From Isurus oxyrinchus (taxonomy: Eukaryota): 64,000 bases of DNA. Both the position numbers and the translations under genes were made by a program. The notes below the pieces were generated by a model. It was not told where the DNA came from. It made no database searches and worked only from the letters and a program-made list of their open reading frames with translations. Location of the stretch: positions 152,892,001 to 152,956,000 of the forward strand of contig JANJGN010000001.1 of the NCBI GenBank assembly GCA_026770705.1, given 5' to 3'. Shown here in pieces: positions 1 to 64,000 of this stretch; the first letter of the stretch is position 1, and every line of letters starts with the position of its first letter.

Positions 1-12
1 ATATTAACTATA

Positions 13-7485: not shown

Positions 7486-7515
7486 CAATTTTATGTCTCA
7501 TGAGATTGCTCTCAT

Positions 7516-8758: not shown

Positions 8759-9080
8759 GTAAGGAATATGACCTGTAATTCATCTTATTTAAATGATGGA
8801 AATGGAGGTTAAGGATGTCCTTGCATTTCTTTTCAGAACAATAAAATTTATAATAAATTTGTCATTGTAGTGTCCAATGTTTTGGTGATGTTACTGTTAG
8901 AATGTTCTGGGAGGCTCGAGTTGCGCTTGTTAGTGTATCTGTAATTGACTTATATGAAGTACGTTAGCAGAGAGAACGGAATAAAACAAGTAGATTATAT
9001 TATTAGTGCAAAAAAGCATGAAATAAAAGATTAAAGTGTGCAATTTTTATGGCAATATTTTTCTTGAAAATACACATACA

Positions 9081-11256: not shown

Positions 11257-11447
11257 GTGCTCAGACACACCCATGGCAACAGCAGAAGAATTACACTGGA
11301 CAAACAGAATAATACACCGGCCCCATTTTGGAAGGATTGAAGTAGAAAGCATTCTTAACACCAAGGAACTGAACAGCAACATTACGGTGGAGTGCCTGTC
11401 ATCCAACAGTGTTGGCGAGAATCGTGCAATCTATCAGATGAAAGGAG
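11257..11447 (+). CDS. KIT: KIT exon 9 equivalent (Ig domain 5, second half)
   Basis: ttacag|G TGC TCA...GGA G|gtaata, phase 2 to 1. CSDTPM...PHFGRIEVESILNTKELNSNITVECLSSNSVGENRAIYQMKG versus KIT CSAS...[32 protein letters not shown]. Confidence 0.92.
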
Positions 11448-18800: not shown

Positions 18801-19179
18801 CTCTCCATGCCCGGTTGCATGGGAAGCATGCTGGCTCTCTAGCTCTAGGGTGTCCTGCTCGAATCTGGTGAGCGGCAGCAGTTGGGCTGCCCTCTGCCTG
18901 TCCGTGACTTCTCCAATTAGTTATGGCTTGTCTTCTCCTGAATGGACAGAGGAGCATTGATTAGTCCACTCTCTACCTGCAGCGCCATTGCATCCTGGCC
19001 AACCCCAGCTGAGGAACACCTTGCAGGGCACATCTGAATCGTGGCCCTCAAGCTGCAAGGCACTCAGTCCAAGCAGCCAGCCTGAAATCATGTCAGGGGC
19101 CGATAGCAGCGACGAGCCGTTTCCCATCCGCTCCCAGGCCTGCCAACCATACCCGCCCGCCGATCTCAAAATTCTGGCT
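15872..19179 (+). mobile_element. PIF/Harbinger transposon copy 1 (left end deleted)
   Basis: HARBI1-like transposase pseudogene on + and Myb/SANT gene remnants on -. Right TIR aaaattctggc. Inverted homolog of 44726-48542. Confidence 0.9.
16007..17275 (+). pseudogene. Harbinger DDE transposase, disrupted
   Basis: GFATIAGFPCVQSAI, FVNRKGFHSMNVQIVCD, ARYPGSSHDAYIL, LLGDKGYPL, RVVVERTMGLLKMHFRCLD. In-frame stops and frameshifts upstream. The GAID-type first Asp appears altered. Confidence 0.88.
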
Positions 19180-20284: not shown

Positions 20285-21257
20285 AGGAATTTTCAATCCG
20301 AGGTTGGGAATCCAACACCTGAATCATTTCCAGGCCCTGACCCTGCTCCCTGTCTGCATCCCTAATGTGACACTATTTTAAAATTGGATCCCCTAATTAG
20401 GCCAGAGGGAAACTCGGCATCCAATTAATGGTGTCAGGCACTGCCAAGAGGCAGAAGCTGACTCAAAAGTGCAATGCTCAAAGGCAGATGGGAGCTATGT
20501 CTCGGCTTGCTGTTGACTTACAGAATGGAGGAGACAGGAGATCAGAGGGCCAGCAACCTCATGACACAGACAAGTGGCCAAACAGTCAATGAACAGGTAC
20601 TTGACCTGCTCTGTGTAAATATTTCCAACAATTTTACTTCAGCAGAAACATCACCTAATGGTTCCCCTCATTGCAAGCAACAATTATGCACTAATGAGCA
20701 CCAGATTGCTTGCTTTTTTTGATCTGTGATTTGAAAATCACCTTCTGGCCCTCCCCAGCCAGCTAACATACATTACAAGGAGCTTAATTAGCAATTAATT
20801 GGAGGCGAGTGGGTTGCTGGCTCCCCCTCCCACCATGCCACTGGGTGCTGTGGCGCGCACCTGTAATCCTGCTACTGGGAGGCTGTGGTTGGCGGATTGC
20901 TTGAAGTCGGGAGTTCTGTTCTGCTGTCGTCTGTGCCGATTGGGTGTCCACACTAAGATCGGTGTCCACATGGTGCTCTTCGGGGAACTGACGATCATCA
21001 GGTGTGTTAAAGAGGGGTGAACAGTCCCAGGTCGGGAACGGAGCAGGTCAAAGCCCCCATACTGATCAGTAGTGGGATGGCACCTGAGAATCGATGCAGC
21101 TGTACATGCCTGACCAATATATAAAGACCCCTCCCACCATACCTTTGCTTTGAAAATTGCAGCGCCTTGCAGAGGCGTCAGAAGACTGACCAGGTTCGCT
21201 ATTTTCAAAGCACTCCCACTATAGACCTTGCCCCCTTAGGCTATTGAAAATCAAACC
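20285..21257. mobile_element. MITE-like element hosting the 7SL retrocopy
   Basis: Inverted termini attttcaat...attgaaaat, with internal taatta motifs typical of the local MITEs. Confidence 0.5.
20840..21131 (+). ncRNA. RN7SL: 7SL / SRP RNA full-length retrocopy (probable pseudogene)
   Basis: Colinear with vertebrate 7SL: ctgggtgctgtggcgcgcacctgtaatcc..gctactgggaggctg (Alu domain), gggtgtccacactaag, gaggggtgaac..cccaggtcgggaacggagcaggtcaaa (helix 8, SRP54 site), ctgatcagtagtgggat, ending agacccc. Flanked by a 16-bp duplication. Confidence 0.93.
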
Positions 21258-36383: not shown

Positions 36384-36745
36384 GGGGGAGATGGTGGTGT
36401 AGTGGTAATGTTGCTGGGCTAGTAATCTAGAGGCCAAGGCTAAGCTTTGGAGGTATGGGTTCAAATCCCATCACTACTACTGAAATTTAAATTCAGTTAA
36501 TAAACCTAGAATTGTAAACTTGCTTCAGTCATTATGAACAATTGTTACACAAATCCATCTGGTTCATTAATGCTGCTATCCTTGCCTGATTGGACTATGT
36601 GTGACTCCAGACCCACTGCAATGAGGTTGACTCTTAACTGCTCTCTGAATTTGCCTTGCAAGCCACTCAGTTCAAGGGCAACTAGGGACAGGCAAGAAAT
36701 GCTGGCCTTGTCAGTGACACCTACATGCCATGAAAGAATGAATTT
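36384..36745 (+). mobile_element. Full-length tRNA-derived SINE
   Basis: A box TGGTGTAGTGG, B box GGTTCAAATCC, shared core, LINE-like tail caagggcaactaggga...atgctggcc. Confidence 0.85.
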
Positions 36746-36847
36746 TAAAAACTGCTGCAGCCCTTGTGCTGACGGTACTCCCACATGGTGTGAAAAATCC
36801 AGAGTGTTGACTAAATGATATATTTTCATTCAAAAACAACATAGTGG

Positions 36848-36930
36848 AGATGCTGGAAATCTGAAATAAAAACAGAAAATGCTGGAAATACTCAGCAAAT
36901 CAGGCAGCATCTGTGGAGAGAGAAACAGAG
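36848..36930 (-). mobile_element. Short Penelope-derived tail, with an inverted partner at ~37118-37182
   Basis: gatgctggaaatctgaaataaaaacagaaaatgctggaaatactcagc...ggcagcatctgtggagagagaaacagag. Confidence 0.7.
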
Positions 36931-39883
36931 ATAATGAGGCAGAATTTTCAGGTCCCACTGAGGTCAGGAACAAAGGTCGACAGGGCCCGAAAACACCGAT
37001 GTCAGCTGGTGGGCTGGTTTCCCACCCCCTGCCCTTGCTGGCCATTTTAGCTAGGGTCCTAACAGATCTATCCACCCTCGTGAGGCAGGTAGCTAATTAG
37101 GCTCATTAAGAGTTCGGAAGTTTCTCTCTCCACAGATGTTGCCAGAGCTGCTGTGTACTCTCAGGACTTTCTGACTTTATTTTTGGCTCACTAAGAGCTT
37201 TGTCAAGGACACTGAAAAGATGCCGACTGAGATTTTCCAGTCAGCCTCCAGTTCCTGACATGAAGTGGGACAGTTAAGCACCTGGAGCCCTGCACCAAGT
37301 GGCAGGCAGGGGGTGGGATGGGGATGGTGCAGCACTCCAGGCAGGCCTGCAGCCCCTCCCTGCCTGCCTGGGTGTGGGTGCAGCCAAGGATTGTCCTTTG
37401 GAGGTAAGGACCAGGATTTTAGTGCACACTGTACTGGTGATGTTGTGCATGTTGCTCCTGGTGTTGTAGGAGGAGCTGAGCTTGATGTCTTAATGTTGTG
37501 TCACTTGCTGGTGACATTGCTGATGTTGCACTGCTTGTTGATGATGCTAGTGATGTTGTCTTGCTGTTTAATGATGCTGCTGGTGTTGTTGCTGATCTTT
37601 CCTGCTTTTCTAGCTCAGGTGTAAGTCAAATATGGGCTGTGCTCCTTTTCATTTAGTTACCGGTTTCGGTTTCAATGATGTATGGCCTCAAAGTCTCAGC
37701 TTCACCAACAACTTTTGCTGGGTTCCAGGGTCTTATGACTGGATCCTGTAGGTGTACAGTTGGTGCTTTCAACAACTCAGGCATGCTTGTTGAAATGTTG
37801 ACCTCCTTCTAATGTGCATCATTGAGTTGTTGTTTTACTTCCTCCTGATCACTTGGACGGAGTATCTTGCTTGGCAGAATTGTCTTATACTTTGTTCCAT
37901 GAAAAGCTCTGCAGATGATTTCACATTCTTCAGAGGTGTAGCTGAGAGTGACAATAAGGCAAGGTTTGAGTCTTCCTTTGTCCTCGGCATTTCATGAGGG
38001 TTCTCTTGACCATCAGAATGTGTATTTCAGTAAAACTGTGTCCCCCTGAGTTAGGCAGTGATGAGGTGATGATATTGAACCCACAATGTTCAGCAAATTC
38101 CTTAAGCTCTGGAGGTGAATTGGATTTCATTATCACTTTTACACTTTCTGAAATCCTATGCTCAGCAGACAGATCTCATACTGCTGAAGTGACTGTTATA
38201 ACTCTCTAATCTTTCCCCTTCCTGATAAAGGGAACTGAGGCCTGGATTTTCATCCCAAGGCGAGTGCACAGGTTTGGGAAAATTCCTGTCTCAGTGAGCC
38301 CACCTTGGGATAAATAGCCACAAATCTTCGTTCCGGGTGGAGGGTGCGGGCGGGTGCGTCCTGGAAAAGGGCCCGCAGCCCCCAGAAACAGTTTGGAGGC
38401 AGCCACGGGGGCTGCCGTGTGTCAAGGTGGGCTGGTTATAAGACCCACCTCAGTGCTCTGGACCTTAGTCCCATTTATAATAAGAGGAGTTAAGCCCTCT
38501 AGCCCTCACACCTCATACCCCATCACCCCCCCATCCACTACCCATATCCTTTCCATGTCAAGTCATGCCCCCACCCACCCCTCATGGTCCCTCATACTCT
38601 CCAAGCCAAGCTATGCCCCTCTACCCAAAGCTAAGGCCCCTTATAAATCCTATACTTAGTGCCGACTGATGCCAACCCATCCCTACCCATCACCCTTTGC
38701 CCTTACCCCCTCCATGCCATCTCACCTAATATCCAGGCAGACCTCAGGGACCATGCTGAGATAAAATAAAATAGAGTTCTAAGTATCAATTGCAGATTTC
38801 ACTATATATATAAAAACTCTCTCATTAATAAAAGCCCATTCAAATGTGTGAACTTGCAGCTCTCACCGCCCCACGCCCCCGCCACTGTGATAGTGACAGG
38901 TTGTGGGAGCAGCCAAGCAGTAATATTAATATAATGGTAATCCTCAGGCTTATGGTAACAAACAGCTATTGAAATTGCAAGCAACTGATTTTTTTCAACT
39001 CAGAGACAGCAGACTGTTTTTTTTCAAAACTTAAAGATCAGGGTATTTAAATAACTTGACAGCCTGACAGTTCCACACATCTTATCCATTTTTAAGCACA
39101 TTCATGTCTATTCTTAAAAATCATAAGTCACGCATTGTGGAAAACAGATCTCGCTCCAGCAAAACTGGGATCTGTTTGAACTCAACACTGAGTTTAAATG
39201 GCCCTGCTGGGTTCGGATTTCCTCCATGTGTGAATCACATGTGAGCACCTTTTCCCTCCCAGCAAATATTGGATTTGTTTCAAATGGGGGCTAAACTTCT
39301 GGATCTAGGGTGCAATTTTGGATAAGGCCCAAAATCTCCATGGGTCGAATTTAGCCCTTGGCAGGTGGGCTCAGTGGGGGCGGTCGGGAAGCCGGCCACC
39401 GCCCACAATCAAGGCCAGCAGGTGATTTCACGCAGGCGAGCCTGCTCAGCGTGTAACGCTAGTGGCAGCACTGTGAGGGGGTGGGGAGGAGGGCAAGCGG
39501 GATGAATGCAAACTTCACGCATGTGTGCGAGTGCACACTTGAGAATCTCCCTGAGGCACAGAGCTGTCTCAGGGAGATGAGTTTTCAAAAAATATAATAA
39601 AGAATTGAAAAATGTTATAAAACATGTTCCCTCATGTGACTCTGTTACTAATTAAGATTTAAAATGTTTATTTTTATTTGCTTTTGGAAACCTCATCCTG
39701 CCTGTGGATGAGGTTTCCTAAAAAGTGCAGAGGCCGCTTGGCTTTTTCACCTGCCCGTCAATCGTAAAGTTGGATGAGCAGCGAAAAATTTAAGTTAATT
39801 GAGACTCTAACAGTCTTAGCAGAACAAAAACAGAATAACCTGGAAAAACTCAGCAGGTCTGGCAGCATTGGCGGAGAAGAAAA

Positions 39884-39923
39884 GAGTTGACGTTTCGAGT
39901 CCTCATGACCCTTCGACAGAACT
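39884..39923 (-). ncRNA. Minimal type I hammerhead ribozyme motif
   Basis: agtt-CUGUCGA-a-gggucAUGAGgacuc-GAAA-CG-UC^aacu. Identical core to 63151-63190. Confidence 0.65.
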
Positions 39924-40308
39924 TGAGTTCGAGTCCAAGAAAGAGTTGAAATATAAGCTGGTTTAAGGTGTGTGTGTGGGGGGCGGAGAGATAGAGAGAG
40001 AGAGAGAGAGGTGGGGGGGGTGTGGTTGTATGGACAAACAAGCAGTGATAGAAGCAGATCATCAAAAGATGTCAACGACAATAGTACAATAGAACACATA
40101 GGTGTTAAAGTTAAAGTTGGTGATATTATCTAAATGAATGTACTAATTAAAAATGGATGGTAGGGCACCCAAGGTATAGCTCTAGTGGGGGTGTTTTTTT
40201 TAATTTTTTTTTATAATGGAAATAGGTGGGAAAAGGAAAATCTTTATAATTTATTGGAAAAAAAAAGGAAGGGGGAAACAGAAAGGGGATGGGGATGGAG
40301 GAGGGAGC

Positions 40309-41673
40309 TCACGACCTAAAGTTGTTGAATTCAATATTCAGTCCGGAAGGCTGTAAGGTGCCTAGTCGGAAGATGAGGTGTTGTTCCTCCAGTTTGCGTT
40401 GGGCTTCACTGGAACAATGCAGCAAGCCAAGGACAGACATGTGGGCAAGAGAGCAGGGTGGAGTGTTAAAATGGCAAGCGACAGGGAGGTTTGGGTCTTT
40501 TTTGCGGACAGACCGCAGGTGTTCTGCAAAGCGGTCGCCCAGTTTACGTTTGGTCTCTCCAATGTAGAGGAGACCACATTGGGAGCAACGAATGCAGTAG
40601 ACTAAGTTGGGGGAAATGCAAGTGAAATGCTGCTTCACTTGAAAGGAGTGTTTGGGCCCTTGGACGGTGAGGAGAGAGGAAGTGAAGGGGCAGGTGTTAC
40701 ATCTTTTGCGTGGGCATGGGGTGGTGCCATAGGAGCCGGTTGAGGAGTAGGGGGTGATGGAGGAGTGGACCAGGGTGTCCCAGAGGGAGCGATCGCCACA
40801 GAATGCCGATAAGGGGGGTGAAGGGAAGATTTGTTTGGTGGTGGCATCATGCTGGAGTTGGCGGAAATGGCGGAGGATGATCCTTTGAATGCAGTGGCTG
40901 GTGGGGTGATAAGTGAGGACAAGGGGGACCCTATCATGTTTCTGGGAGGGAGGAGAAGGCGTGAGGGCGGATGCGCGGGAGATGGGCCGGACACGGTTGA
41001 GGGCCCTGTCAACGACCGTGGATGGAAAACCTCGGTTAAGGAAGAAGGAGGACATGTCAGAGGAACTGTTTTTGAAGGTAGCATCATCGGAACAGATGCG
41101 ACGAAGGCGAAGGAACTGGGAGAATGGGATGGAGTCCTTACAGGAAGCGGGGTGTGAGGAGCTGTAGTCGAGGTAGCTGTGGGAGTCAGTGGGTTTGTAA
41201 TGGATATTGGTGGACAGTCTATCACCAGAGATTGAGACAGAGAGGTCAAGGAAGGGAAGGGAAGTGTCAGAGATGGATGAGGTGAAAAAGATGGAGGGGT
41301 GGAGATTGGAAGCAAAATTAATAAATTTTTCCAGGTCCCGATGAGAGCATGAAGCGGCACCGAAGTAATCATCGATGTACCGGAGAAAAAGTTGTGGAAG
41401 GGGGCCGGAGTAGGACTGGAACAAGGAATGTTCCACATACCCCATAAAGAGACAGGCATAGCTGGGGCCCATGCGGGTACCCATAGCCACACCTTTTATT
41501 TGGAGGAAGTGAGAGGAGTTGAAGGAGAAATTGTTCAGCGTGAGAACAAGTTCAGCCAGATGGAGGAGAGTAGTAGTGGATGGGGATTGTTTGGGCCTCT
41601 GTTCGAGGAAGAAGCTAAGGGCCCTCAGACCATCCTGGTGGGGGATGGAGGTGTAGAGGGATTGGACGTCCAT
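40309..41673 (-). CDS. Penelope-like RT plus GIY-YIG endonuclease (partial, Neptune-type)
   Basis: DVQSLYTSIP, GVAMGTRMGPSYA, RYIDD, FLDL, linker CPRKRCNTC, NLVYCIRCSQCGLLYIGETKR...RFAEH. Confidence 0.92.
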   Translation of the reverse strand: MDVQSLYTSIPHQDGLRALSFFLEQRPKQSPSTTTLLHLAELVLTLNNFSFNSSHFLQIKGVAMGTRMGPSYACLFMGYVEHSLFQSYSGPLPQLFLRYIDDYFGAASCSHRDLEKFINFASNLHPSIFFTSSISDTSLPFLDLSVSISGDRLSTNIHYKPTDSHSYLDYSSSHPASCKDSIPFSQFLRLRRICSDDATFKNSSSDMSSFFLNRGFPSTVVDRALNRVRPISRASALTPSPPSQKHDRVPLVLTYHPTSHCIQRIILRHFRQLQHDATTKQIFPSPPLSAFCGDRSLWDTLVHSSITPYSSTGSYGTTPCPRKRCNTCPFTSSLLTVQGPKHSFQVKQHFTCISPNLVYCIRCSQCGLLYIGETKRKLGDRFAEHLRSVRKKDPNLPVACHFNTPPCSLAHMSVLGLLHCSSEAQRKLEEQHLIFRLGTLQPSGLNIEFNNFRS

Positions 41674-44600
41674 GGTGAAGAGGAAGCGGTTGGGGCCAGG
41701 GAACAGTCTTAGCAGGCCTTTTAATTGTTAGCGGGCACGCTGCCAATTCCAGTGCATGCCTGGCGACTGAAATATCGCGTGGCTGCGCACTGACGTCAGG
41801 AAACTCGCCCAATGTCAACACATCATTTTATGCTCAAGCAGGTCGGGTGCATGCCCACCCGCCGAGGTGAATATTTTGCCCCATGGCTCTGAAAACCTGG
41901 GCCTTAATGCCTGGCACTATGAGGTGCCAGTCTTCATTGCAGGTGAGTAAATCGTCTACCATACTATGCCATGGTCTGGCTACATTTCAGTACTTCTGGC
42001 ATATATTGTATGTAGACACAATTCTTTCCATGTCTTTGTAGGTGTCTATCCAATACACAGCTAATCTGGCTCTGTGCTTACACTTCTCCATTCCTATGTG
42101 GTCTTCATGTACCTCCTGAAGAAGTTCTGTGTGCATCATTTTGGGTATGATTATTCTGGATCTAGCCAGCAGTATAGCATCTTCTAGTGAGATATCATCT
42201 CTGTTTGGCCTGTACTGGTGTATTGCTATATCTTATCAGGCCATTCCTGGATCACTTGTTGAGTGAACATCTGTAACTCTTCCTCTTTACTGGTCTCATC
42301 TCTAATTTGACTTAGTTTCAGCAGTATTATGTTCACTAGGTGATGGATCTTTACACCTACATTTTTTATCTCATTTTTCTCATACAGATGAGATTGGGCA
42401 TTTCTCTTCCTGGCATGTATTTCAAAAGGGAATTGTAACTGCGAAGCCTCAAGAGTAACCTCTGTGGTCTTGCTGGTATTTTACATCATTTTTCTTGTGG
42501 ATCTGCTCCAGTGAATGATGATCACTCTCCACTATGAACTTTCTCCCGTAGAGATTTGTATGGCATTTCTCACATCCATACATGACTGCCAAACATTCTC
42601 TTTCTACGTTGGTATATCTGGTCTCAGCTGATGTTAGAGCTTTGACTGAAATGCTATTGGTTTTCCCTCTTGTACCAGGGCCGCATCCAGTCCTTTTGTA
42701 TAAGCATCTGCTTGTAGATTGACAGGTTTCTCTCTGTTGCATTATGACCAACTTGTCTCCTTGCATACTACTTCTTTGATGCTGAAACTCCCCTCGTGTG
42801 ACTCTGACCACTATACTCAACATCCCCTCTCTTGTAGCTTTGAGCTGTGTTCTGGCATGAGAGGTATGAAAGAACTTATGTGCTGCATCAAATAAAGGTA
42901 ACTTCTCTATTCTTTCTTGTCTCTTGGAACTTCCATCCTAGAGATGGCTGTGACGTTTTCAGGACTTGCTTGGCTGCAGCAGGTGTGTACATCATATCGA
43001 AGAGTCAGCATTCCGTCACCTTCAAAATGCATTTGTCTCCATTTAGCTTGATTCCAGCTTTCCTGGTTCTCTCTATAGCTAAGTGTAGATGGTGGTCATA
43101 ATCCTATTCATCCACACCACTGATCTGGATATCATCGGCGATGCCACTGCTCCATTGCATCCTTTATATGTCTCCTCTACTTTCTGCTGGAACTTATCAT
43201 GGTTCACTTTAAGGCCAAAAGGCAGACACAGGAATTTGTTATATCCAAAGGGTGTATTGAATGTTGTCAATAATGAGCATCTGGTGGTTGTTGGCTGCGT
43301 GCTCTAAAACCTGCACCAATATGGCACCCATGCAAATTGTCCCACATATGTGTGCATTTGCCACAGAGGCCATTTTGACCACTAAAAGTATTTGAAACAG
43401 CCAAAAAACAGCCACAAATGATCCCAATTTCTCACCCTAGGTTTTTCTACACTTGGTTGGATTTTTGAAGAGGACATTTATTATCTTTTTCAGCACTATA
43501 GACCTAAAAAAGATAATAAACTAAATTGCTTTCATGTATCAGATTTCTGAAATAAGGAAGAGGCAATACACTGCAATTAATGAGGATATTCTCTTGTACG
43601 TTATCTTGCAAATTACAACCCACATCATATTCTACAGTCTGCTGGTTTCTTTAATACTGAGTTTGACTTTTAACAAAGAGGCAAAGAGGGAAAGACTTCT
43701 ATTGCTTGCCAGGCATCCATGTGTTTCCCAGATGCTATATGATCTGCGTGTATAAAGCCATGAAGCAGGAAATGGGAGGATGGGATGGGGAAGGTTTAGC
43801 CATTTCGGGAGAGCTGAAGGGAACTGAAAGTTTAAGTGAATGAAAGCACAAGAGCAGAAGTGGCATTTTATATTAATAGTCACATTTGAAGGGGAAATAA
43901 GCAGTGGGCAAAATCTTCCACTCTGAAGCCTAAGTTCAGTGGCAGGTGCAAAAGTAGGAGGGATCTCCACTCGGGAGCAGGACAATTTTGCGCTGGTCAG
44001 CTTATTAAATATGTATTCGCGAGGAGCTCGCCAGTTCTTGCAGTGGGGGCAGTCAGGAAGTCGCCATCCTTATCGTTACATCATGGGTTCCAAGGTCCGG
44101 ACGCCATATTTAAAGGACACACAGACAGCTTGCACTATCCCTTCCGCCTTTGCCCAGCCACTGCTCCACTCTTCTCCTCTAACCCTTCCTTCCTTGGTCA
44201 TCCTCCATGCAATTTGTACTGTCACCACCCAGTCTCAAGCATGGGCTTCCATTTACATATGCTCCGCAAAGTGGTCAATGCAGCGGCAACTCGCCGTTAA
44301 TCATAGTAAGAGTCTACCTTGCCAGGTGCACGCCATTTATGTACAGCTGTAAAAATTAACATTCTAAGTTCCCCGGTAGTCAGAAATTAATTTGGTGGGG
44401 GGAATCTTTATTCGGGCAAGGTAGCATTTTAATGAGCATGCATGACATGTTAATGCATGCTAAAGGGTTTCCCGACATTGTTCGTCAGGAGGCTTGACCT
44501 GCCTATAATATCCCGAGAACAGAATTCCAAAAATTCATCCTGATGATGGGAAACTGATTTTTGGTCTTACGCCAAATTTTTGTCTTCCCGCGGCTAACGG

Positions 44601-44977: not shown

Positions 44978-46849
44978 ATGGAATCAAGTGCGGCTGGACA
45001 CGACGGGGGGAGGGAAAGTCAGGCGGGCACTCGGCCTCCCGCTTCTCTGAGTGCCTCGCCGTACTCCTGGAGGAGGTGGCTGCCAGGAGGGACACCCTTG
45101 TCTCCAGAGATGGGGGGAGGAGGCCACCACATCTCACAAGGAGGGCATGGGAGGAGGTTGCAGCACTGGTTAGCAGCCATGACGTGGTGCAGCGCACATG
45201 GTTGCAGTGCCGGGAGAAGTTCAATGACCTGCTGCGCTCAGGAACGGTGAGTACCGTATTGGCATGGATCAGTGTGCAGAAGTTTTAAGATCTGGCTGTC
45301 CCTCCTGTGGACCTCAGGGGCGCTAGAGTCTGAATGTCAACTGTCAGTGACGCCGGAGCTGGCCAAGGGGGTGAGCCCTAGCTGCTTGAACTGAGTGCCC
45401 TCCAGCTCCAGGGCTACAACTCAGATGTGCCCTGCGAGGTGTTCCTCAGCTGGGGTTGGCCAGGCTGCAATAGGGCTGCAGGTAGAGAGTGGACTAATCA
45501 ATGGTCCTCTGTTGTTTCAGGAGAAGACGAGCCATAACCATTCAGAGGGGGCACAGACAGGTGGAGGGCAGCCCAACCTGCTGCTGCTCACCAGATTCAA
45601 GCAGACACCCTAGAGCTAGAGAGCCGGCACACTCCACATGCAACGTGGCGTGGAGAGGCAGGGGTGCCAGACGGAGGTAAGAGTGCAGTGCACAGAAGTG
45701 AGGCTTTTGGATTGTGCAACCATTCTAGTGTAGTCTCTTCATTGATGGGAGCCTCGAACCTGGATTCCCCACTGATCATTGAAAGACAGTGGCACCATGA
45801 TGCAGATCTCCATTGTCTCACCAGGGTGCCTGGCACGGACAGTGATAGTGTGATGACTTTAAATAATGACATATTGTTGCTCCCCCTTAGATTCGCCAGC
45901 ACACATTCCCTCTCTGGACCCTGAAGAGCCACCCCTGACACTGGAGGACCAATGGGCTTCATTTGCACCTGCGTCACACTCGCTCCCTGAACCAGGCACC
46001 AGCACAGATACCAGCACCTTGGTGGGCATTAGATTGGCGACTAGAATGTTGGTGCACATTGGCCAGGGCACTTCACACTCGCTTGAGGTTCAGGCGGAGG
46101 CAGAGAGTGCCCAGGGTACCAGCAGTTAGAGGACTGCTGGGGACCAGGACAATGCTCATTCGAAGGTTGATGATGAGCTTTGAGTCATCCATTTGGCAGC
46201 AGATGTTGGATGTCCAGCGAGATCTGCAGGAGGATCTGGCGAAAATCCATGAGAGCATGTGCACCATGGTCTCTATTGAGAAGGAGTCCATGTGGAGCAT
46301 CAGCATTGTGTTGACCTTCATGGCCAAGCGCACTGCCTCCTCCATTGAGAGGGTGGCAACTCCCATGGAGAGGCAGCTCCAGGGACAGAATCAGGAGTTC
46401 CTGGGGTAGCGCTCGAATCTGCAAGCCCCCACACAGGCACTAAGCTCAGGTGGCCAGTGCCAGTGTGGGAAATGATTGAAGCACCCAGTATCCCAGTGAG
46501 GTGCCCATCCGTCAATAGTGAGCAGGGAGGTCCGAAGCGACCACACGTTGGCGCACGAGCTGCCTGTCGTCTCTGTGGGTTCCTCTCAGTGTGCTGTAGA
46601 TGATGGCAGCCAGCTCCTCCGCCAGTAACCGCCGCATCTGATGAGGCTGTGATGAAAGCGGAGATGCCAGCCCTGGCACTGGCCGCTCCCTCCCAGGCGG
46701 GGCCAGCACAGGCTCCATGGGCTAGAGGACAACTGCCAAAGCCATCTAGGCCAACAGGACAGTGGAGTCAGCAGGCTGTTTCCGATGTCTGTGGCAGTGA
46801 TGGAGGGGGAGGGGCACCAAGACGTAGCGCTCGGAAACATAAGTTATAA
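44978..46849 (+). pseudogene. Harbinger Myb/SANT (trihelix) DNA-binding gene, 3 exons (44978-45246, 45521-45676, 45891-46849), disrupted
   Basis: RRAWEEVAALVS...RTWLQCREKFNDL|gtgagt; tttcag|EKTSHN...QTGGGQP...|gtaaga; cttag|... Frameshifts and stops are present. Confidence 0.8.
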
Positions 46850-47179
46850 AAGCACCATGAGCACCAGAGGGACAGTTCATGGGTGATTTTCTGTTCATTT
46901 ATGTTTGCTTTATATGTCTGCTGGTGTGGACATCAACACTAGTAATGGTCATGCATTCAATGTGACAATAACAGTAAATTTGCTTTGGTTTTGATGGGCT
47001 GAGTATGCTTCACCTTTACTTTAGGTGCAGGGTGCACCAGTATGTATTGCTGGATGTGAGTGGCTCGGTACTTTATTGCACAAATACTGAGTGGACTTTG
47101 GGTGCAAATGAAAGGGTCATTTCAGACATCCGGGATGGAAGCGGCAGACCTGGCATGTGGTGGAAGCAGATTTTTGGCA

Positions 47180-48079
47180 GCCTAGCTGAAGGAGCATTGG
47201 ATCAAGGTGTGCCTGGTGTCCCTGCCTCCCTGAAGGATACAGAGGTCTGCCTCCATGCCCGCAGTGTTCTCCTCACCCTGTTCCTCTTCTGACTCACTAC
47301 TGGATCACTACTACTACCATCTCTGTGGCCTGTGGAGCAGCGTCAAGATCCTTTTCCTCCAGTGGGTCCAATTGTGGAAAGCGCAGCATGCAACCACTAT
47401 CAATGACACCCACTCTGGGGGTATTGTAGTGCACCCCTGAACAGTCCAGGCATCGGAAGTGCATCTTGAGAAAACCTATGGTTCTCTCTATCACCGCCCT
47501 TGTGGAGCCATGGCTGGCCTCCTCCATACTGTAAAGAATAAAGGTTAGTAAACGCCTGAACAGAGCTTCTGTCACCAGCTTGACGCAACTGTAGACATCT
47601 GATTGGGAGACTACACACAGATCCCCCACTGACCCCTGGAAAGAGCAGAAGGCATAGAAACTGAGGGTCACTGTGACCTTCAGCGCCTCTGGCATGAGGT
47701 GTCCACCCACACAGTTGGAGCTGATCTCAGGGCCAATCGTCTGACAAATGGAGGTCACTGTCTCCCTTGAGAGGCGGAGCCTCCTTCGGCACTGCACCTC
47801 AGGCATATTGAGGTAGCTGCATCGCTGCCGGTTAACCCTAGCAGCAGGATAGTGGCATCTTCTGTGGCCCCTTCCATCTTGGACTTCCTGCTGGCCCTGC
47901 GCCCCTTGTGCCCGTGTCTCTCCTCGCTCTGGTCGCTCGCCTGGAAGCTGCATTGGGACACCTGGCATCCTCCCCCTTCTGCCCCTCTCTTCCTCCTCAG
48001 AGGAGGTGCCACCAGTGGACACCACAATCCCCATTACCAGGGCAACGGAAGGGTGTCTGATCCCTGAAAGGGTCCACAT
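47180..48079 (-). pseudogene. Harbinger transposase with central deletion
   Basis: N-terminus CRRRLRLSRETV...LKVTVTLSFYA joined directly to STRAVIERTIGFLKMHFRCLD. The catalytic middle is missing relative to copy 1. Confidence 0.85.
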
Positions 48080-48679
48080 GGTCTGAATCCTCTGGATGCC
48101 TTGCAGACACCAATGAATCCTGAAGTGAAGTCTGGAAAAGTGAAGAATGAAGCCCCAAACAGAGATGAGGCTGCTGAGTACAAATAAGCAACTGGCAGCA
48201 AACTATCTCCAAAACTCCTCTCTCCTCACACTGGCAATGCTGCTGACCCTTTTTATCCTGACCTTGGGTGAGGTTTGTGAAATTGTCGGCTGCCTGCCTG
48301 CCCGTTTGCCTGTGCGACAAGTGCAAAATCTCATGGGCAACGTAAAATCTAATTGCCTTTTTAATGGCCTTAATTGGCCTCATAATTGATGGCGGGTGCG
48401 GCTGTGAATCCCGCACGCGTCCAGCGACCGAAATATCGCTCAGGTGCGCAATGACTTCAGGACGCTTGCCCGACATCAACACGAGCTATTTTACTCTCGA
48501 GTGGGTCAGCACACACCTACCCGTTCAGCAAAAAATTCTGTCCACGGCCCTCCTACCCACCAGGTCTCCTCCCTGCTCAATTGATAATCTACATGCATGA
48601 TGATTGCATAAGTACAATTTAATATAAACCAATAGTTCTTCCTATCTGATCCCTATGATTGTAACTGCATGGGTACATA

Positions 48680-52053: not shown

Positions 52054-52564
52054 AAAAAGTATTTTTCAGCAATACTTAAGTCCAGGGCCTTGGACTGGGA
52101 GGGATTGGGCAGGTTAGGGAGGGGGATTGGGGTGGTGGGTTTAAGGCTGCAGGCGGGTAGGAAGAAAGGGCGGGTTCTATCATCAGGGTATATCCATCCA
52201 TCGACAAAGGGCAGCTCCCGAAGATAGAACAGCACCCACCCCTTCCCGTCCTTTGAAGAGATTATATAAAAAATCAGGCTGCCCACTCCCGCCCAACTAC
52301 ACACGCCAAACATTTCATGGCGTGGGCTATGTATTATCAGGGCCAATTAGCCTGGTAACAAACATAACTGACCCTTAATTATCTGTTTAAATATGGCAGG
52401 CAGGCTGTCAAATTTCAGCGCCCACCTACCCCTCATATTATGGGTGTGAGCTCGGGGGTGGGTGGGGAGGTGGTGGGTGGGCTCCCGCCCTATGTGGGCT
52501 CCCGCCCTATTTTACCTGTCCCCCCCTAAAAACGCACCCAGCGAAGGCAGGTAAAATGCAGCCC

Positions 52565-55535
52565 ACTTACTCACTCTTACACACACTCAGTCACTCACAC
52601 TCAGTCATTATTACACACTCACTCACACTCACACACACACACATTCACTCACACACACTCATTTGCTCTCAAACACACATACACATGCACTCACTCAAGC
52701 TTACACTCACTCACTCAGTTACTCACACTCACGCTCAATCTAACACTCACTCACTCTCATACCCACTCTGTCTCACACACACACTCGCCTGCACACACTC
52801 ACGCTCACACACACTCATTCAAACACTCACTCACTCTCACATTCCCCCTCTCACACACTCACTCACCCTCACACATACTCACTCACACACTCATTCACAT
52901 GCTCACTCACTCTCACACTCACTCTCATACACACACTCTCACGCACTCTTACACTCAGTCACTTTCACACTCACTCACTCTCTCACACATTCATTCTCAC
53001 TATGATTCACTTACTTTCATACACATTCACTGACTCACACACACTCATCCACACACTCAATCTCACACTCACTACCCCTTACACACACTTAGTCACTCTC
53101 ACATACAGTCACTCACTCTCACACATTCACCCAATCACACACTCACTTTCACACTCACTCTCACACATACTCATTAACCCTCACAATCACTCACTCTGAC
53201 ACACTCTTTCACTCTCACGCACTTACTCTCACACAAACTCACTCTCATACTCACTCTGATACTCATTCACTTACTCTCTCACACATTCACCCAATCACAC
53301 ATTCACTCTGACACACACTCACTCACTCTCACACAATATCATTAACCCTCACACTCACTCACTCTCACACACACTCACTCACTCTCACACTCACTCACTC
53401 TCACACATTTACTCTCACACTCATTCGCACACACACACTCATTTTCACACAAACTCACTTACTCTCGCACACACTCACTCACAATCACCCTCACACTCAG
53501 TCTCACACACACCCACTGTCTCACACACACCCACTGTCTCACACACACCCACTGTCTCACACACACTCACTGTCTCACACTCACTCACTGTCTCACACAT
53601 TCACTCATACTTTCACACACACTCTCTCACACACTAACTCATTCACATACATACACACTCACACATACACTCACTTTCACCCTCACTCTCTTGCACACTC
53701 GCTCACTCTCACACAAACACTCTCACATTCATTCACACACTCTAACAAACACTGACTCTCACATTCGCTCACAATCACACTCACTCACTCTCACACACAA
53801 TGACTAATGCACTCTCTCACACACTCACTCACCCTCATGCTCACTCACCCTCACTCACTCACCCTGTCTCACACACACTGTCTCACACACACTGTCTCAC
53901 ACACACTCACGCTCATTTTCACACACTCTCACAAACTCACTCGCATACTTAGTCTCACACTCGCACACTCTTTCACACAATCACCCTTTCATGCACTTAC
54001 TCTTACACACACATTTACTCTCACACAGTCACTCTCACACTAACTCACACATATATACATTCACTCTCGTTCACAAAGACTCACTTAGTTGCACACCGAC
54101 TCTCATGCAAACATTCTCACACTCACTCACTCACACAAAATGACACACACACTCACTCGCCCACTCTCTCTCACCCTCACACTCCCTTACTCCAACACAC
54201 ACTGTCACACTCACTCACTCGCTCTCACACTGTCACTGACACACTCATTCACTCACACTCACTTACTTTCAAACACACTCACTCACATGTTCACTTTCTC
54301 ACATACACACTCACTCATTCTAACACACACTCCCTCTCACACACATTCACTCACTCTCACACTCACATTCTCAAACTCACTGACAGGCAGACTCACTCAC
54401 TCTCACATTCACTCACAGGCAGACTCACTTGCTCTCATGCTCACTCACTCAATCTCTCTCACACATACTCTCGCACTCATTCACTCTCACGCTCATTCAC
54501 ATACTCACTCACTCCCTTATTCTCACACACATTCACTCACTCACTCGTTCACATACACTCATTCTCACATACACTCACTCTCACACACTCACTCTCTCAC
54601 ACACATTCTCACACACTCACTCACTCTCACACATCACTCATTCACACATTCACTCATTCGCACATACTCATTCACACACTTTCACATTCACTCTCCCTCA
54701 CAAGCACTCACACTCACACAATCTCACTCACTCACTCTCATATACACTCACACACACTCACACTTTCACATTCACTCTCCCTCGCATGCACTCACTGTCA
54801 CACAAACTCACTCTGACACTCTCGCACACTAACTCTCACACTCACACTCTCACAATTACACATTCTCACACACACTGACTCTCACATACACTCACTCAGT
54901 CACTCTCACACACTCACTCAGCCTCACACACTCACTCTTGCACTCACTCACACTCACTTACACATCTCACTCACTCAAACACTTATTCTAATTTTTCACT
55001 CTCACTCACTCACACTGACTTATCCTCAGACATCACTGACTCACTCACACTCACTCATTCTCACATGCTCTTACACACTCTCTCTCACACGCACTCACTG
55101 TTACTCACACGCACACAATCTTAGTCACTCACTCTCACATGCATGCACACACTCACATTCACTCACACACTCACTCCTACAGTCACACTCTCAAACACAG
55201 TCACTCACACTCACTCACTCTTGCACATTCACACTCTCTCACATGCTCTCACTCTCACACACTCACTTAATTCACTCACTCTGACACTCATTCACTCTCA
55301 CACTCACACTCTCACACACATACTCCCAATTACTCATACTCACACTCACTCTCTCTCATACTCACACTCACTATCACTCACACTCTCACACTCACTCACT
55401 TGCTCTCACACACTCACTCACACTCTGTCTCACACTCACTCAACTCACTCACTCTCATGCTCTCACACACCTTCACGCTCACACACACTCTCACACTTAT
55501 TCTCACACACATACACTCACACTTACTCTCACATC
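52565..55535. repeat. ~3 kb degenerate (ACTC)n/(AC)n simple-sequence tract
   Basis: Nearly G-free top strand built from cact/caca/ctca units. Confidence 0.97.
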
Positions 55536-58193: not shown

Positions 58194-59681
58194 TAGTCTC
58201 ATTGAGTCAAGAAAAGGTACTTGACAATCAATTCCAAACACAAAAGGAGAGAAGAGTGAGGAAAACTCACTGCAAGTTACTCTTGCGCACCTCCTCAGAA
58301 GGGGTCCCAGAACACAAAGAAAAGTACTGAAGCTCTCAGTCAGTGTCGGGGAATTCAAACAGCATATAAAATTGCATGAAAATAATTATTTAATTCATAA
58401 TTCCATTGCTACTGCAAAATATTCCTTTTGTTAGATACTCGATCGTCTTCTGCAAAAGCACCTAATGATTATTTTTCACAGCTACAGCTGTAAAAATGTT
58501 TAGAAACAGATTTAGCTTGGATTGTTCAGAACTAAACCCATGAAGATTTTCTTAGGCAATTTCTTGACACAGTAAAAGTCTTTTGTAAATGTTGCAGAGG
58601 TTATAAATTTTCTCATTAATTACAACTGAAAATTTTCAGGCAAGGCTGAGTAAAGCTAATAGGCATGTTTGATTTGGGTAGATTTGGTCTGCAGAGACAT
58701 AGCAGACTGAGATACTCTGTAACTCCTTCATCCTGAACTAGATATCCACTACATCATATATATTTAATATTTTTTGGCAGTGCCTGGCCCTTGAGAATAG
58801 TAAGTTTTGCTTGTGCAGGTGCTCTCCTGTTAAGTGCCTGCCTGTGGATGAAGTAGCATTAGTGTGTGGTAACATTGACCCAGCTGGCAAATCCCATGGA
58901 GTACATGGTGGGTTTGCAACCAATGCCAAGAGTCACTTTCACTGGAATAGCTGCAGGTTCACAACTTGATGGTGAATCCTACTGTTATTTCTGCAGGACT
59001 GCAAGATGGCACTCAACCATCGCTAACATATTGACCCCAAATTACCATGGTGACTCAGATTGAGACAACCCCTGCAGAACTTAAAGGGTTCTATTGGCAA
59101 TCAGAGATGCTGCTACACCTATGGCCTTTGTAACTGAAGTTGCCATGGCAAATACCATGTAGCGTCACTGGCAGACAACTGCTCATTCAACATAACTAGA
59201 TCATCATTCAGTGTCTAGTGGATATAGATTCCTAAATATGGAACTGATGTTGTCCCAATTTCCTGTGAAAGCAGGACCAGTAAAATTCCATATGATTCAA
59301 GAAGAATAGTCAGCTTAGGGGACGTTCACCTATCAACCCACGTTCATAGTTCTTTGTTGGCATAACGTATCAGTGCCAAACTCTGTACCTCCTTTTCACC
59401 ATCACTGTGATCTTCACTCATGTATCTGTGCCACTGGTGCAAAATTGGAGCTTAGATGAATGTTATTCTTTAGGCATCACAATTGTATAAAGAAGCCTAA
59501 TAATTTGTGTCAACTATTATTATTTACACTATCATGCACAGTCAATCTGTATGGTCACAATAATGTGCCAAACTATCAAAAACAAGGGGTTGTTTTTATA
59601 TGCCATCTTAATGGTGTAAAACAGTCCAGAGCCCTTTAGTGTAACAGAACAAATTTTGACACCAAGCCACATAAGGAAATA

Positions 59682-59833
59682 AAAGCAAAATACTGCAGAT
59701 GCTGGAAATCTGACAGCATCTGTGGAGAGAGAAACAGAGTTAACATTTCAAGTCCGTATGACTCTGCTCTGAAGTAGAGCCATAAGGACTTGAAATGTTA
59801 ACTCTGCTTTTCTCTCCACAGATGCTGTCAGAT
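59682..59833. mobile_element. Fold-back Penelope-derived mini-element with a 15-bp TSD, inserted in an L2-like fragment (~59600-60040)
   Basis: Arms 59708-59765 and 59776-59833 are inverted repeats. TSD ccac(a/t)taaggaaata at 59667-59681 and 59834-59848. Confidence 0.8.
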
Positions 59834-60785
59834 CCACTTAAGGAAATATTAGGTCAGATGACCAAAAGCTTGGTCAAAGGCGTAGATTTTAAAAAGTATC
59901 TTAAAGGAAGAGAGAGGAGTAGAGAGGCGGAGAGGTTTAGGGATGGAATTCCAGAACACTGATCCTTGGCAGCTGAAGACATGGCTGCCAATAGTGGAGT
60001 GATTAAAATAGAGGATATACAAGTGGTGAGAATTTGAGGAGAAAACATAGAATACATGGTTAGGGCAGCATGTAACTTTCCCTCCAGAATAACTCAAAAC
60101 ATGTTTTGCTCAATTGGAAAAATTGCACCTCATTATGACCCCTTTCCAAGTGGAAAACAGGGACAAAAATGAATAACTTTACAAGACCATATCCTGCATC
60201 TCCAAGGACATGTGCAAGAGCCGTAAAAATGTCTGGGATGTACAGCCACCCACAACAGGCATTAGGGTCCCTTACCTATGCTAATGAGGAGCCTAATGCA
60301 TGTTTTTGGACGCCTCAGGAAAATTGAACTGCCCTGAACACTGGACTTTCTCTGCTGAGGTTTTGGGGCATGCATGGATAGTGATGTTAGCAGATTTGAA
60401 AGGGGGAGGCACATTACCAGAGGAGAGGGATTCATTAACAAGAGCAGCTAGCCCCAGGACCAGTAAGGGAAGTTGGATGGCTGTCAGCTTAATGGGAAAA
60501 GGACCAAGGGAGCAGGAATAGACAAGGTGAGCTCAGAAAGGACATGAGGGGGCATAGGGGAGAAACAAGAGAAAGATGTGAGTTCACAGTCAGGATGGGG
60601 GGAAGCTTGAGGAAGTTTGGCTTGACCTAAACTGTTTCCTGTCCATTTCTTTTTTGCTCCTTATTAGTCAATTTTGTTTCTTACCTTCAGGCAGATATGA
60701 TTAAATCTCCAGCAACTCCGCTGTCGTTCAGTCCTGGAAAATTGATGTGCTCTCAAACAAGAACTGTGCCGTAAAGAGATTTTTT

Positions 60786-61030
60786 TGTAATATCACTTTC
60801 ATGTTTGTAGTAATTGAAGGTATAGTCTTCCCTATTGTCTATCAGGGAGTCACATGACTGTTCTTGGAGACTCCAACTAATGAGCCCTAAGCACGGATAA
60901 TCCAGGGCAGGGGGACAGCGCATGGCTTTCTAGTCGAGGACCTTGATCAAGCATGTAGCTTCTGAAAAACTCTCTGTAATAAAGTCCTCTATTTCAAGTA
61001 GAAACCTGTCCAGTATATCAAATTATTACG
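60786..61030 (+). mobile_element. Probable solo LTR
   Basis: TGTAATA...TATTACG inverted termini, internal agtcacatgact palindrome and AATAAA (~60978). Confidence 0.5.
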
Positions 61031-61139
61031 ATGTTATAGCCCCTAATGCACTAGTACTTGTGTATCATTACTAGTACTTGTTTATTCGGTTTTACTTGCA
61101 AATTAAGGGGACTTATTTCACCAGTCCTTTCAGCCACAG

Positions 61140-62762
61140 CCCACAGCTTCCAACCTGATAGTCGCCCAACCTCGGACAGCCCGCTTCTATCTCCTACCCA
61201 AAATCCACAAACAGAACTGCCCCGGTAGACCGATCGTCTCAGCTTGCTCCTGCCCCACAGAACTCATTTCTCGTTATCTTGACTCCCTTCTCTCTCCCCT
61301 TGTCCAGTCCCTTCCCACCTACATCCGTGATTCCTCTGACACCTTACGTCACATCAACAATTTCCAGTTCCCTGGCTCCAACCGCTTCCTCTTCATCATG
61401 GACGTCCAATCCCTCTACACCTCCATCCCCCACCAGGATGGTCTGAGAGCCCTTAGCTTCTTCCTCGAACAGAGGCCCGAACAATCACCATCCACCACTA
61501 CTCTCCTCCGTCTGGCTGAACTTGTTCTCACGTTGAACAATTTCTCCTTCAACTCCTCTCACTTTCTCCAAATAAAAGGTGAGGCTATGGGTACCCGCAT
61601 GGGCCCCAGCTATGCCTGTCTCTTTATGGGGTATGTGGAACATTCCTTGTTCCAGTCCTACTCCGGCCCCCTTCCACAACTTTTTCTCCGGTACATCGAT
61701 GATTACTTCGGTGCCGCTTCATGCTCTCGTCGGGACTTGGAAAAATTTATTAATTTTGCTTCCAATCTCCACCCCTCCATCATTTTCACGTGGTCCATCT
61801 CTGACACTTCCCTTCCCTTCCTTGACCTCTCTGTCTCAATCTCTGGTGATAGACTGTCCACCAATATCCATTACAAACCCACCGACTCCCACAGCTACCT
61901 CGACTACAGCTCCTCACACCCCACTTCCTGTAAGGACTCCATCCCATTCTCCCAGTTCCTTCGCCTTCGTCGCATCTGTTCCGATGATGCTACCTTCAAA
62001 AACGGTTCCTCTGACATGTCCTCCTTCTTCCTTAACCGAGATTTTCCACCCACCGTCGTTGACAGGGCCCTCAACCGTGTCCGGCCCATCTCCCGCGCAT
62101 CCGCCCTCACGCCTTCTCCTCCCTCCCAGAAACATGATAGGGTCCCCTTTGTCCTCACTTATCACCCCACCAGCCTCCGCATTCAAAGGATCATCCTCCG
62201 CCATTTCCGCCAACTCCAGCATGATGCCACCACCAAACACATCTTCCCTTCACCCCCCTTATCGGCATTCTGTAGGGATCGCTCCCTCCGGGACACCCTG
62301 GTCCACTCCTCCATCACCCCCTACTCCTCAACCCCCACCTATGGCACCACCCCATGCCCACGCAAAAGATGTAACACCTGCCCCTTCACTTCCTCTCTCC
62401 TCACCGTCCAAGGGCCCAAACACTCCTTTCAAGTGAAGCAGCATTTCACTTGCATTTCCCCCAACTTAGTCTACTGCATTCGTTGCTCCCAATGTGGTCT
62501 CCTCTACATTGGAGAGACCAAACGTAAACTGGGCGACCGCTTTGCAGAACACCTGCGGTCTGTCCGCAAGAATGACCCAAACCTCCCTGTCGCTTGCCAT
62601 TTTAACACTCCACCCTGCTCTCTTGCCCACATGTCTGTCCTTGGCTTACTGCATTGTTCCAGTGAAGCCCAACGCAAACTGGAGGAACAACACCTCATCT
62701 TCCGACTAGGCACCTTAAAGCCTTCCGGTCTGAATATTGAATTCAACAACTTTAGGTCGTGA
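61140..62762 (+). CDS. Penelope-like RT plus GIY-YIG (partial; frame open upstream of the Met at 61398)
   Basis: PRTARFYLLPKIHKQNCPGRPIVS...YIRDS...DVQSLYTSIP...RYIDD...VYCIRCSQCGLLYIGETKR. Confidence 0.92.
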   Translation, partial: PTASNLIVAQPRTARFYLLPKIHKQNCPGRPIVSACSCPTELISRYLDSLLSPLVQSLPTYIRDSSDTLRHINNFQFPGSNRFLFIMDVQSLYTSIPHQDGLRALSFFLEQRPEQSPSTTTLLRLAELVLTLNNFSFNSSHFLQIKGEAMGTRMGPSYACLFMGYVEHSLFQSYSGPLPQLFLRYIDDYFGAASCSRRDLEKFINFASNLHPSIIFTWSISDTSLPFLDLSVSISGDRLSTNIHYKPTDSHSYLDYSSSHPTSCKDSIPFSQFLRLRRICSDDATFKNGSSDMSSFFLNRDFPPTVVDRALNRVRPISRASALTPSPPSQKHDRVPFVLTYHPTSLRIQRIILRHFRQLQHDATTKHIFPSPPLSAFCRDRSLRDTLVHSSITPYSSTPTYGTTPCPRKRCNTCPFTSSLLTVQGPKHSFQVKQHFTCISPNLVYCIRCSQCGLLYIGETKRKLGDRFAEHLRSVRKNDPNLPVACHFNTPPCSLAHMSVLGLLHCSSEAQRKLEEQHLIFRLGTLKPSGLNIEFNNFRS

Positions 62763-63150
62763 GCTCCCTCCCCCATCCCCACCCCCTTTCTGTTTCCCCC
62801 TTTTTCCTTTTCTTTCCCTATAAATTATATAGATTTTTCTTTTCCCACCTATTTCCATTATTTTTAAATATTTTAAAATCTTTTATGCTCCCCCCACCCC
62901 CACTAGAGCTGTACCTTGAGTGCCCTACCATCCATTCTTAATTAGCACATTCGTTTAGATAATATCACCAACTTTAACTTTAACACCTATGTGTTCTTTT
63001 GTACCATTGTCGCTGACATCTTTTGATGATCTGCTTCTATCACTGCTTGTTTGTCTACACAACCACCTCTCTCTCTCTCTATCTCTCCACCCCCCCATAC
63101 ACACACCTTAAACCAGCTTATATTTCAACTCTTTCTTGGACTCGAAATCA

Positions 63151-63190
63151 AGTTCTGTCGAAGGGTCATGAGGACTCGAAACGTCAACTC
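63151..63190 (+). ncRNA. Minimal type I hammerhead ribozyme motif
   Basis: aguu-CUGUCGA-a-ggguc augag gacuc-GAAA-CG-UC^aacu. Predicted GUC cleavage site after 63185. Confidence 0.65.
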
Positions 63191-64000
63191 TTTTCTTCTC
63201 CGCCGATGCTGCCAGACCTGCTGAGTTTTTCCAGGTAATTCTGTTTTTGTTTTGGATTTCCAGCATCCGCAGTTTTCTTTGTTTTTATATATATATATGA
63301 ATGGAAGGAGTCTTCCCTACTGAACATGATTTCTAAAACCATTCTTGAGTTTTCCCAGTTACATCTATCATAGTTTTTGTTCCAGTACAAAGGCTGTCAG
63401 AGTATGGCAGTCACTTTTTAGCAATAATGTAAAGCCAAAGCAATAACATTTTATTTGAAGTAAAACAAAACAGGACAGGAAAATAAGTTTGAAATGTGAA
63501 GCAGGCAGTTTGTTAAGGTCACTGAAGCTTCACTACTTTTCAATGCTAATTAGCGCCAATTATAAGGCCAGTTTTGTGCAGCTGTGGACACGTGCCTACA
63601 GGGAATATGACTGAGGACAGCCAAATTCATTTCACTCAGGGCCCTTAATAGTCATTTGAGAGAGAAATAGAAAGATGTTCATATTCATTTGGGCTTGATT
63701 CAAACTCACAACCCTGAGGTGAAAAGAATTTTTTTTCTCGATTTTCCCACTTCTCATATTATCTTCGCATTCCCTCCCCCAAATTATCCTCCCACATGTT
63801 GCTGTCATGAGGAAATGAAATAGGACATAGGCATAACCATGCATGTTACTGAGGCAAGACCTTGATGACTGCACAGGAAATGCACTGTGTAATGGGAAAA
63901 GTTAATGCTTCCTCTTTCCAGCTAATAATCCTGTTAACTGATGACACTACCACAAGGCTAAAAGCTCATTGTTCAGGCTGAACTTTGGGGTTTAGTGTTT

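Follow-up and report, generated by a model that had tools for sequence, protein, structure and literature searches.

A 152-nt insert in a 64-kb shark sequence is a minimal inverted Penelope-like element end with a dead hammerhead

The window analysed here, a 64,000-nt stretch of Isurus oxyrinchus contig JANJGN010000001.1 read on the forward strand, carries three KIT-like exons on the + strand upstream of the insert that is the subject of this report, at about 5843-5957, 8643-8759 and 11309-11446 (E 4e-12, 1e-8 and 0.014). The gaps preceding the third of these Ig-domain exons are shorter than 3 kb, whereas motif scans of the more than 52 kb that follow it (positions 11446-64000) identified no KIT transmembrane or kinase exons. 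Either the intron is very long or the gene is interrupted at this point, and the insert probably lies within a KIT intron of more than 52 kb. Several other repeats were seen in the window. A full-length match to 7SL (SRP RNA) at 20840-21139 (+ strand, 203 bits), within the presumed KIT intron, lacks the usual U-run at its end and looks like a diverged copy. DDE_Tnp_4 transposon copies that are presumably Harbinger-like, and are 77-91% identical, lie in inverted orientation at 15872-19080 and 45378-48214, while a tRNA-like match at 36393-36479 (+ strand, 32.5 bits, with a long insert) directly follows a LINE RT fragment (35213-36178) and is likely the head of a tRNA-derived SINE. A degenerate CA/CT-rich low-complexity tract of 3 kb occupies 52564-55533.

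The insert comprises 152 nt (59682-59833) between 15-bp direct repeats at 59667-59681 and 59834-59848 on the + strand, the left copy being identical to the right at 14 of 15 positions. This target-site duplication (TSD) scored 12 in a scan in which the maximum for 150 random position pairs was 9. The insert interrupts the 3' region of a minus-strand LINE, the ORF2 C-terminal coding end of which is found at 59852-60001; the peptide read from this right flank matched the C-termini of unnamed LINE-ORF2-like proteins (best E 5e-9). An earlier note on this DNA had described the interrupted fragment as L2-like. The LINE-ORF2-like character of the flank stands and we take the host to be L2-like, but no search named L2: none of ten matches to the flank carried a LINE Pfam family, and the other searches returned nothing or unnamed clusters. 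At least one of these ten matches, the S-layer protein P0124, was dismissed as spurious.

Most of the insert folds back on itself. Its inverted arms (59708-59768 and 59773-59833) are complementary at 56 of 61 positions, the runner-up pair of 61-nt arms with a 4-nt spacer in the whole window reaching 32 of 61, and the predicted minimum free energy of the insert region was -102.4 kcal/mol (z -16.6; 0 of 200 shuffles as low). The arms and loop account for 126 of the 152 nt, with the remaining 26 nt (59682-59707) unpaired. The insert, its 15-bp TSD and its arms were thus as the earlier note had described them, although the two 58-nt arms around a 10-nt loop given there cover only these 126 nt. The loop is 10 nt long only if G59766-T59775 is counted as a break; as this pair forms a wobble in RNA, the loop shortens to 4 nt. 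The insert has no ORF and hence no RT and GIY-YIG frame of its own, and is a fragment rather than an autonomous Penelope-like element (PLE) copy.

BLAST searches and a profile built from the window copies recovered eight PLE 3' ends in seven insertions, with nothing else below E 0.36. Two of the ends belong to coding copies (family A), and the four short fragments and the two arms of the insert form family B. The arms are 75-80% identical to the coding copies and 83-93% identical to the four fragments, contrary to the earlier reading that the right arm carries the same tail as the coding copies. The profile matched the long arm, which was outside its training set, at E 3e-18 and the short arm, which was inside it, at E 6e-18. 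The coding copies lie at 61107-63287 (+ strand, 5'-truncated, tailed, minimal hammerhead at 63155) and at 39823-41701 (- strand, 5'-truncated, tail-less, minimal hammerhead at 39919), and are 94.6% identical over 1.9 kb. The second is flanked by a perfect 14-bp TSD, as previously reported; an LTR-type RT RNase H fragment at 42452-42937 (- strand) lies just outside it. Both ORFs encode RT and GIY-YIG domains, and the named proteins closest to them come from sharks and rays (61-68% identity), which points to a likely chondrichthyan host. The family-A ORF has a Cys-rich stretch before the endonuclease, seen as a linker in the copy at 61107-63287; such a stretch is a criterion for Neptune elements (PMC3846280). 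Family B has no ORF in the window, and its clade is putative. In several copies the pLTR end contains an ATG-started open frame. No matching N-terminus was present among 120 fetched relatives, of which those with a complete N-terminus are unnamed proteins of only ~50% identity, so the idea that an ORF starts there (5' pLTR run-off) gains no protein support here.

The four short family-B fragments differ from one another in structure. The copy at 7376-7484 (+ strand) is tailed, is flanked by a 14-bp TSD (7362-7375 and 7485-7498, 13 of 14 identical), begins in the hammerhead core and skips helix II-III. The tail-less copy at 10-101 (- strand) begins at hammerhead position 7, and the window edge truncates its TSD (7 matches among the 8 positions still in view, which alone is not significant). 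A third copy (36833-36936, - strand) is tailed and has its 5' end near the hammerhead cleavage site; no TSD was found for it within 5 kb, a neighbouring repeat having possibly disrupted it. The fourth (37115-37184, + strand) is tail-less, with its own 13-16-bp TSD at 37100-37114 and 37185-37199 (score 10); its first 6 nt resemble the hammerhead core with one mismatch, after which the sequence skips. We rejected 36833-37182 as a second fold-back pair, as 37115-37184 has its own TSD and none surrounds the pair. The related tails listed in the earlier note therefore exist as fragments, but the one placed at 36848-37182 consists of two independent insertions. TSDs of 13-16 bp accompany four of the seven PLE insertions (the insert, 7376-7484, 37115-37184 and the coding copy at 39823-41701), whereas the coding copy at 61107-63287 and the 36833 copy gave no TSD above the null in the scan. 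A long TSD is thus a general trait of PLE integration in this window and does not mark a special family.

The five family-B insertions range in length from 70 nt through about 92, at least 104 and 109 nt to 152 nt, and just one of them folds back. There is no full-length family-B element in the window that could have supplied the template or the mobilising enzyme, nor a second copy with the internal deletion of the insert described below, and none of the 16 tandem-repeat (TRF) rows for the window coincides with a PLE-end copy. An exact 24-mer search of GTDB genomes and searches of plasmids and phages gave no match; these sets contain no shark DNA and are uninformative on copy number.

The unpaired 26 nt establish the polarity of the insert. 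They are the reverse complement of a terminal extension found on the copies at 7376, 36833 and 63287 and absent from those at 10, 37115 and 39823 (the tail is present on four of the eight PLE 3' ends in the window and absent from four), matching the ends of 7376-7484 and 36833-36936 and, more weakly, that of the coding copy ending at 63287. The overhang is therefore the PLE 3' terminal tail, present on one arm only and on the minus strand, so that the insert's own sense is minus: its main copy is read from the minus strand, with the + arm forming an inverted copy without a tail at the 5' end of this main copy. The overhang is shorter than the usual 30-40-nt tail because the short arm takes in the first 6 tail bases. 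The long arm (59708-59768, - strand) is a 5'-truncated PLE end that begins at hammerhead position 7 or no more than 3 nt beyond it, and has an internal deletion at about 59714/59713 that removes 40 nt when the 36833 copy is taken as reference and 42 nt with the 7376 copy. The 4-nt loop (59769-59772, + strand) corresponds to hammerhead core positions 3-6 of the short arm and contains the inversion point, and 59766-59768 may belong to the short arm too. The inversion thus falls at the 5' core of the hammerhead, in agreement with the earlier proposal that it lies at the ribozyme. The inverted, tail-less short arm (59773-59833, + strand) ends with the long arm's deletion-junction letters, halting 26 nt before the tail end and ~7 nt away from the tail-less end of the sister copies. 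Both arms carry the same junction letters, and both have TpG at the two CpG positions of the motif in the family-A coding copies. This shared junction and CpG decay suggest a degenerate template mobilised in trans, and the same features lend some weight to the earlier description of the element as non-coding, in that they suggest a non-coding template. They can be explained by one degenerate template or by one arm having been copied from the other.

No Rfam hammerhead was detected at the gathering threshold in the window, and none at E<=10 in 59600-63400. A relaxed descriptor, the core of which follows the standard hammerhead numbering, found five sites in the window; the best two were the family-A ends, and neither arm of the insert passed. 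The architecture of the descriptor was that given in PMC4209133. These searches bear out the earlier description of the motif as degenerate. The short arm and loop together read as a degenerate minimal type I hammerhead, with U in place of A9, a single mismatch in helix II and a disrupted helix I, while the long arm lacks hammerhead positions 3-6; the two motifs lie on opposite strands. For RNA of the + strand, the predicted helix II pair probabilities were <1e-11, as compared with a mean of 0.93 for arm-arm pairing. The hammerhead of the insert has decayed and is predicted to be unable to fold. Minimal PLE hammerheads are reported to be inactive as monomers and to have low activity as tandem dimers (PMC4209133). 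The coding copies (63155-63161 on the + strand, 39919-39913 on the - strand) share a core variant with U instead of A at position 6, their helices being otherwise intact, which by sequence looks like a family-wide change at a conserved core position. The long hairpin that the earlier note envisaged in KIT pre-mRNA is likewise predicted, but it would be a by-product showing no evidence of a function, and its placement in an intron is presumptive.

The 5' ends of the short insertions were placed relative to C3 of the hammerhead core. The short arm begins at -3 to 0 and the long arm at +4 (or +7), the 7376 copy at -1 to +2 and the 10-101 copy at +4; the 37115 copy probably begins at 0 (5 of 6 nt match), and the 36833 copy, which has no TSD, near the cleavage site at +31. 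With the insert counted once, three of the five short insertions clearly start within the core and a fourth probably does. For a 10-nt window in an 80-nt range this gives P 0.016 for three of five and P 0.001 for four of five under a crude null with n=5, values that shrink as wider ranges are taken; two of the five insertions are placed by 6-nt matches, for which the chance is about 0.004 and 0.02 per site. Self-cleavage would produce 5' ends at +31 and is thus not the cause of the clustering at the core, which may instead mark the 5' end of the PLE transcript, a splice acceptor, or a point at which the RT stops or stalls. In D. virilis, an intron is described as ending at helix I (PMC4209133). 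A further observation concerns the TSD-flanked copies at 7376-7484 and 37115-37184 (both + strand), each of which shows the core letters first and then skips helix II-III, and the target ends of which have 3-5 nt in common with the bases immediately preceding the core. This overlap and skip suggest microhomology joining and an RT jumping the folded motif; the skip in two copies would fit a jump of the RT over a folded hammerhead.

The arrangement of the insert is one already described for PLEs. EN+ PLEs (Penelope/Poseidon, Neptune and Naiad; PMC8557442, PMC3846280, PMC2377424) are reported to form inverted pLTR insertions, which resemble the insert in having a direct copy with an adjacent inverted copy, both 5'-truncated, a tail at one end, one TSD around the whole and a minimal hammerhead in the repeat. 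The insert differs in having no ORF between the repeats, in being cut down to the pLTR end (152 nt), in its 40-nt internal deletion and, compared with the 8-10-bp TSDs of Adineta PLEs (PMC3846280), in its 15-bp TSD. It shares with the paired hammerheads of truncated PLEs (Cervera and De la Pena 2014, PMC4209133) a bulged base before helix II, a palindromic 4-nt helix III, a short helix I and placement on opposite strands. However, the hammerhead pairs in Schistosoma lie 100-700 bp apart, while the motifs of the insert abut with a 4-nt spacer and are both damaged. We conclude that the insert is a minimal inverted PLE-end insertion with a dead hammerhead. Its layout is the published PLE layout, which counts in favour of an ordinary PLE insertion in miniature.

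From the observed anatomy, TSD, shared junction and TpG, degenerate cores and sister 5' ends, we infer twin priming on a single degenerate template supplied in trans, with a fixed boundary at the core. The insert would then comprise two head-to-head PLE 3' ends, one of them tailed, set within a 15-bp TSD by one twin-primed event on a deleted and decayed RNA, and we regard this as the probable origin of the locus. A GIY-YIG/RT protein would prime cDNA from both cut target strands, using as template an RNA that was already deleted and decayed and was provided in trans; both cDNAs would stop at the 5' edge of the hammerhead and then be joined head to head, the fixed boundary arising as the transcript starts or is spliced there or as the RT stalls. 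Related features have been published. PLEs are described as making staggered cuts and TSDs. Their insertions often bear an inverted copy, itself 5'-truncated, at the 5' end, while a tail of 30-40 bp is confined to one of the two ends (PMC8557442), a layout also seen in PMC8969392; PMC3846280 describes inverted pLTRs flanked by TSDs of 8-10 bp, as well as palindromic pLTR 5' ends; and minimal hammerheads that are paired on opposite strands at distances of 100-700 bp are ascribed to truncated PLEs (PMC4209133). For the Anolis PLE protein (PMC11167929), both target strands are reported to be cut and extended, hammerhead cleavage is not required and the RT begins at two sites flanking the tail. 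Mobilisation by a GIY-YIG/RT enzyme, as the earlier note proposed, is likely given the PLE-derived end and the 14-15-bp TSDs, but a partnership with the coding copies, which are of a different family, is unsupported.

An alternative is that a short PLE cDNA folded back at the core, or that a template switch occurred later, with the first arm serving as DNA template for the second. This would account together for the shared junction, the shared TpG positions and a short arm that ends at the deletion junction, ~7 nt off the usual tail-less end; a short palindrome that immediately precedes the core of the coding copy at 39823-41701 and the palindromic pLTR 5' ends reported in PMC3846280 fit it as well. 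Yet 4-7 nt of sense core are present on the short arm and missing from the long one. The loop, too, reads as core in the sense direction of the short arm, a polarity that does not fit a tail-primed cDNA snapping back; had the opposite strand snapped back, a further cDNA would have been needed to provide the 26-nt tail. The polarity of the loop and these additional core bases favour twin priming, with the short arm as a separate cDNA from the other target strand. The features shared by the arms could also have come from later arm-to-arm conversion. Snap-back seems rather unlikely to us, and even then the insert would be an ordinary, one-off PLE insertion. The idea of a non-autonomous family of dedicated fold-back elements, their hairpin master being transcribed and retrotransposed whole by a PLE protein, draws on a template that looks non-coding (the 40-nt deletion and CpG decay in both arms), on the size of the family-B insertions (all five are no longer than 152 nt, and three or four begin at the same motif) and on the existence of other non-autonomous PLE derivatives, MRC1 among them (PMC8557442). 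Against this, only one of the five copies folds back, lengths and deletions differ from copy to copy, the deletion has no second occurrence in the window, and a 61-bp duplex would be a poor RT template. We hold this to be unlikely.

The earlier note had gone further in proposing a family of fold-back, ribozyme-bearing, retrozyme-like elements, a claim that is not supported, there being a single fold-back among five copies of 70-152 nt and neither tandem arrangement nor intact hammerhead. The insert does share with non-LTR retrozymes (PMC7229834; bioRxiv 10.64898/2026.07.22.740005) that it is non-coding, related to PLE pLTRs, hammerhead-derived and probably moved in trans by PLE proteins, and vertebrate retrozymes in particular are reported to be related to PLE pLTRs (bioRxiv 10.64898/2026.07.22.740005). 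However, retrozymes are described as head-to-tail tandem units with a hammerhead in each, released as circles, whereas the insert is head-to-head with dead motifs. A ribozyme-processed circular RNA reverse-transcribed by a PLE RT is hard to reconcile with the lack of tandem arrangement, with motifs on opposite strands that leave no transcript with the two sense copies of the dimer required by minimal hammerheads (PMC4209133), with cores that are mutated or cut, and with 5' ends that fall at the core and precede the cleavage site by 31 nt. For this locus the retrozyme reading is largely refuted, and we consider it very improbable. MRC1 of Chlamys (PMC8557442) resembles the insert in being similar to autonomous elements only at its 3' end and in its likely mobilisation in trans, but elements of this type form multi-copy families with a defined body and head-to-tail arrays, and the insert is one copy in 64 kb. 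A MITE, or a microRNA or siRNA hairpin unconnected with PLE retrotransposition, is scarcely credible: the long inverted repeat is of the kind expected, but the 26-nt left overhang means that the repeat is not terminal at the left and the 15-bp TSD, which is like those of the other PLEs, is not the short, superfamily-specific TSD of a MITE; the sequence itself is a PLE end. Rfam matches to the hairpin were confined to miRNA and snoRNA models, all sub-threshold, the miRNA matches reaching 21-25 bits against gathering scores of 53-95.

As a single locus the insert is of little weight, being a transposon fossil in a long intron-like stretch, and its hairpin serves as a warning that annotation may mistake such structures for MITEs or microRNAs. 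What it offers is a minimal read-out of PLE integration, the inverted repeats and tails of which are called mechanistically unexplained in the literature. Among openly available papers, the titles and abstract openings searched gave no description of fold-back PLE ends in sharks or of 5' ends clustering at the core. Extending twin priming to a wider pattern, we suggest only tentatively that sharks contain abundant short PLE retrocopies, the 5' boundary of which is fixed at the hammerhead core and not at the cleavage site, their cDNAs being twin-primed head-to-head there. If this is true, either a hammerhead that stays uncleaved or else a start site or splice acceptor of the transcript located at helix I would set both the end of reverse transcription and the point of inversion in inverted pLTRs, and a genome-wide map of such ends would test how PLE inversions form. 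Should the clustering of 5' ends and inversion points at the core hold genome-wide, counting them would be an inexpensive way to test twin priming against snap-back and to probe the role of the weakly active PLE hammerhead.
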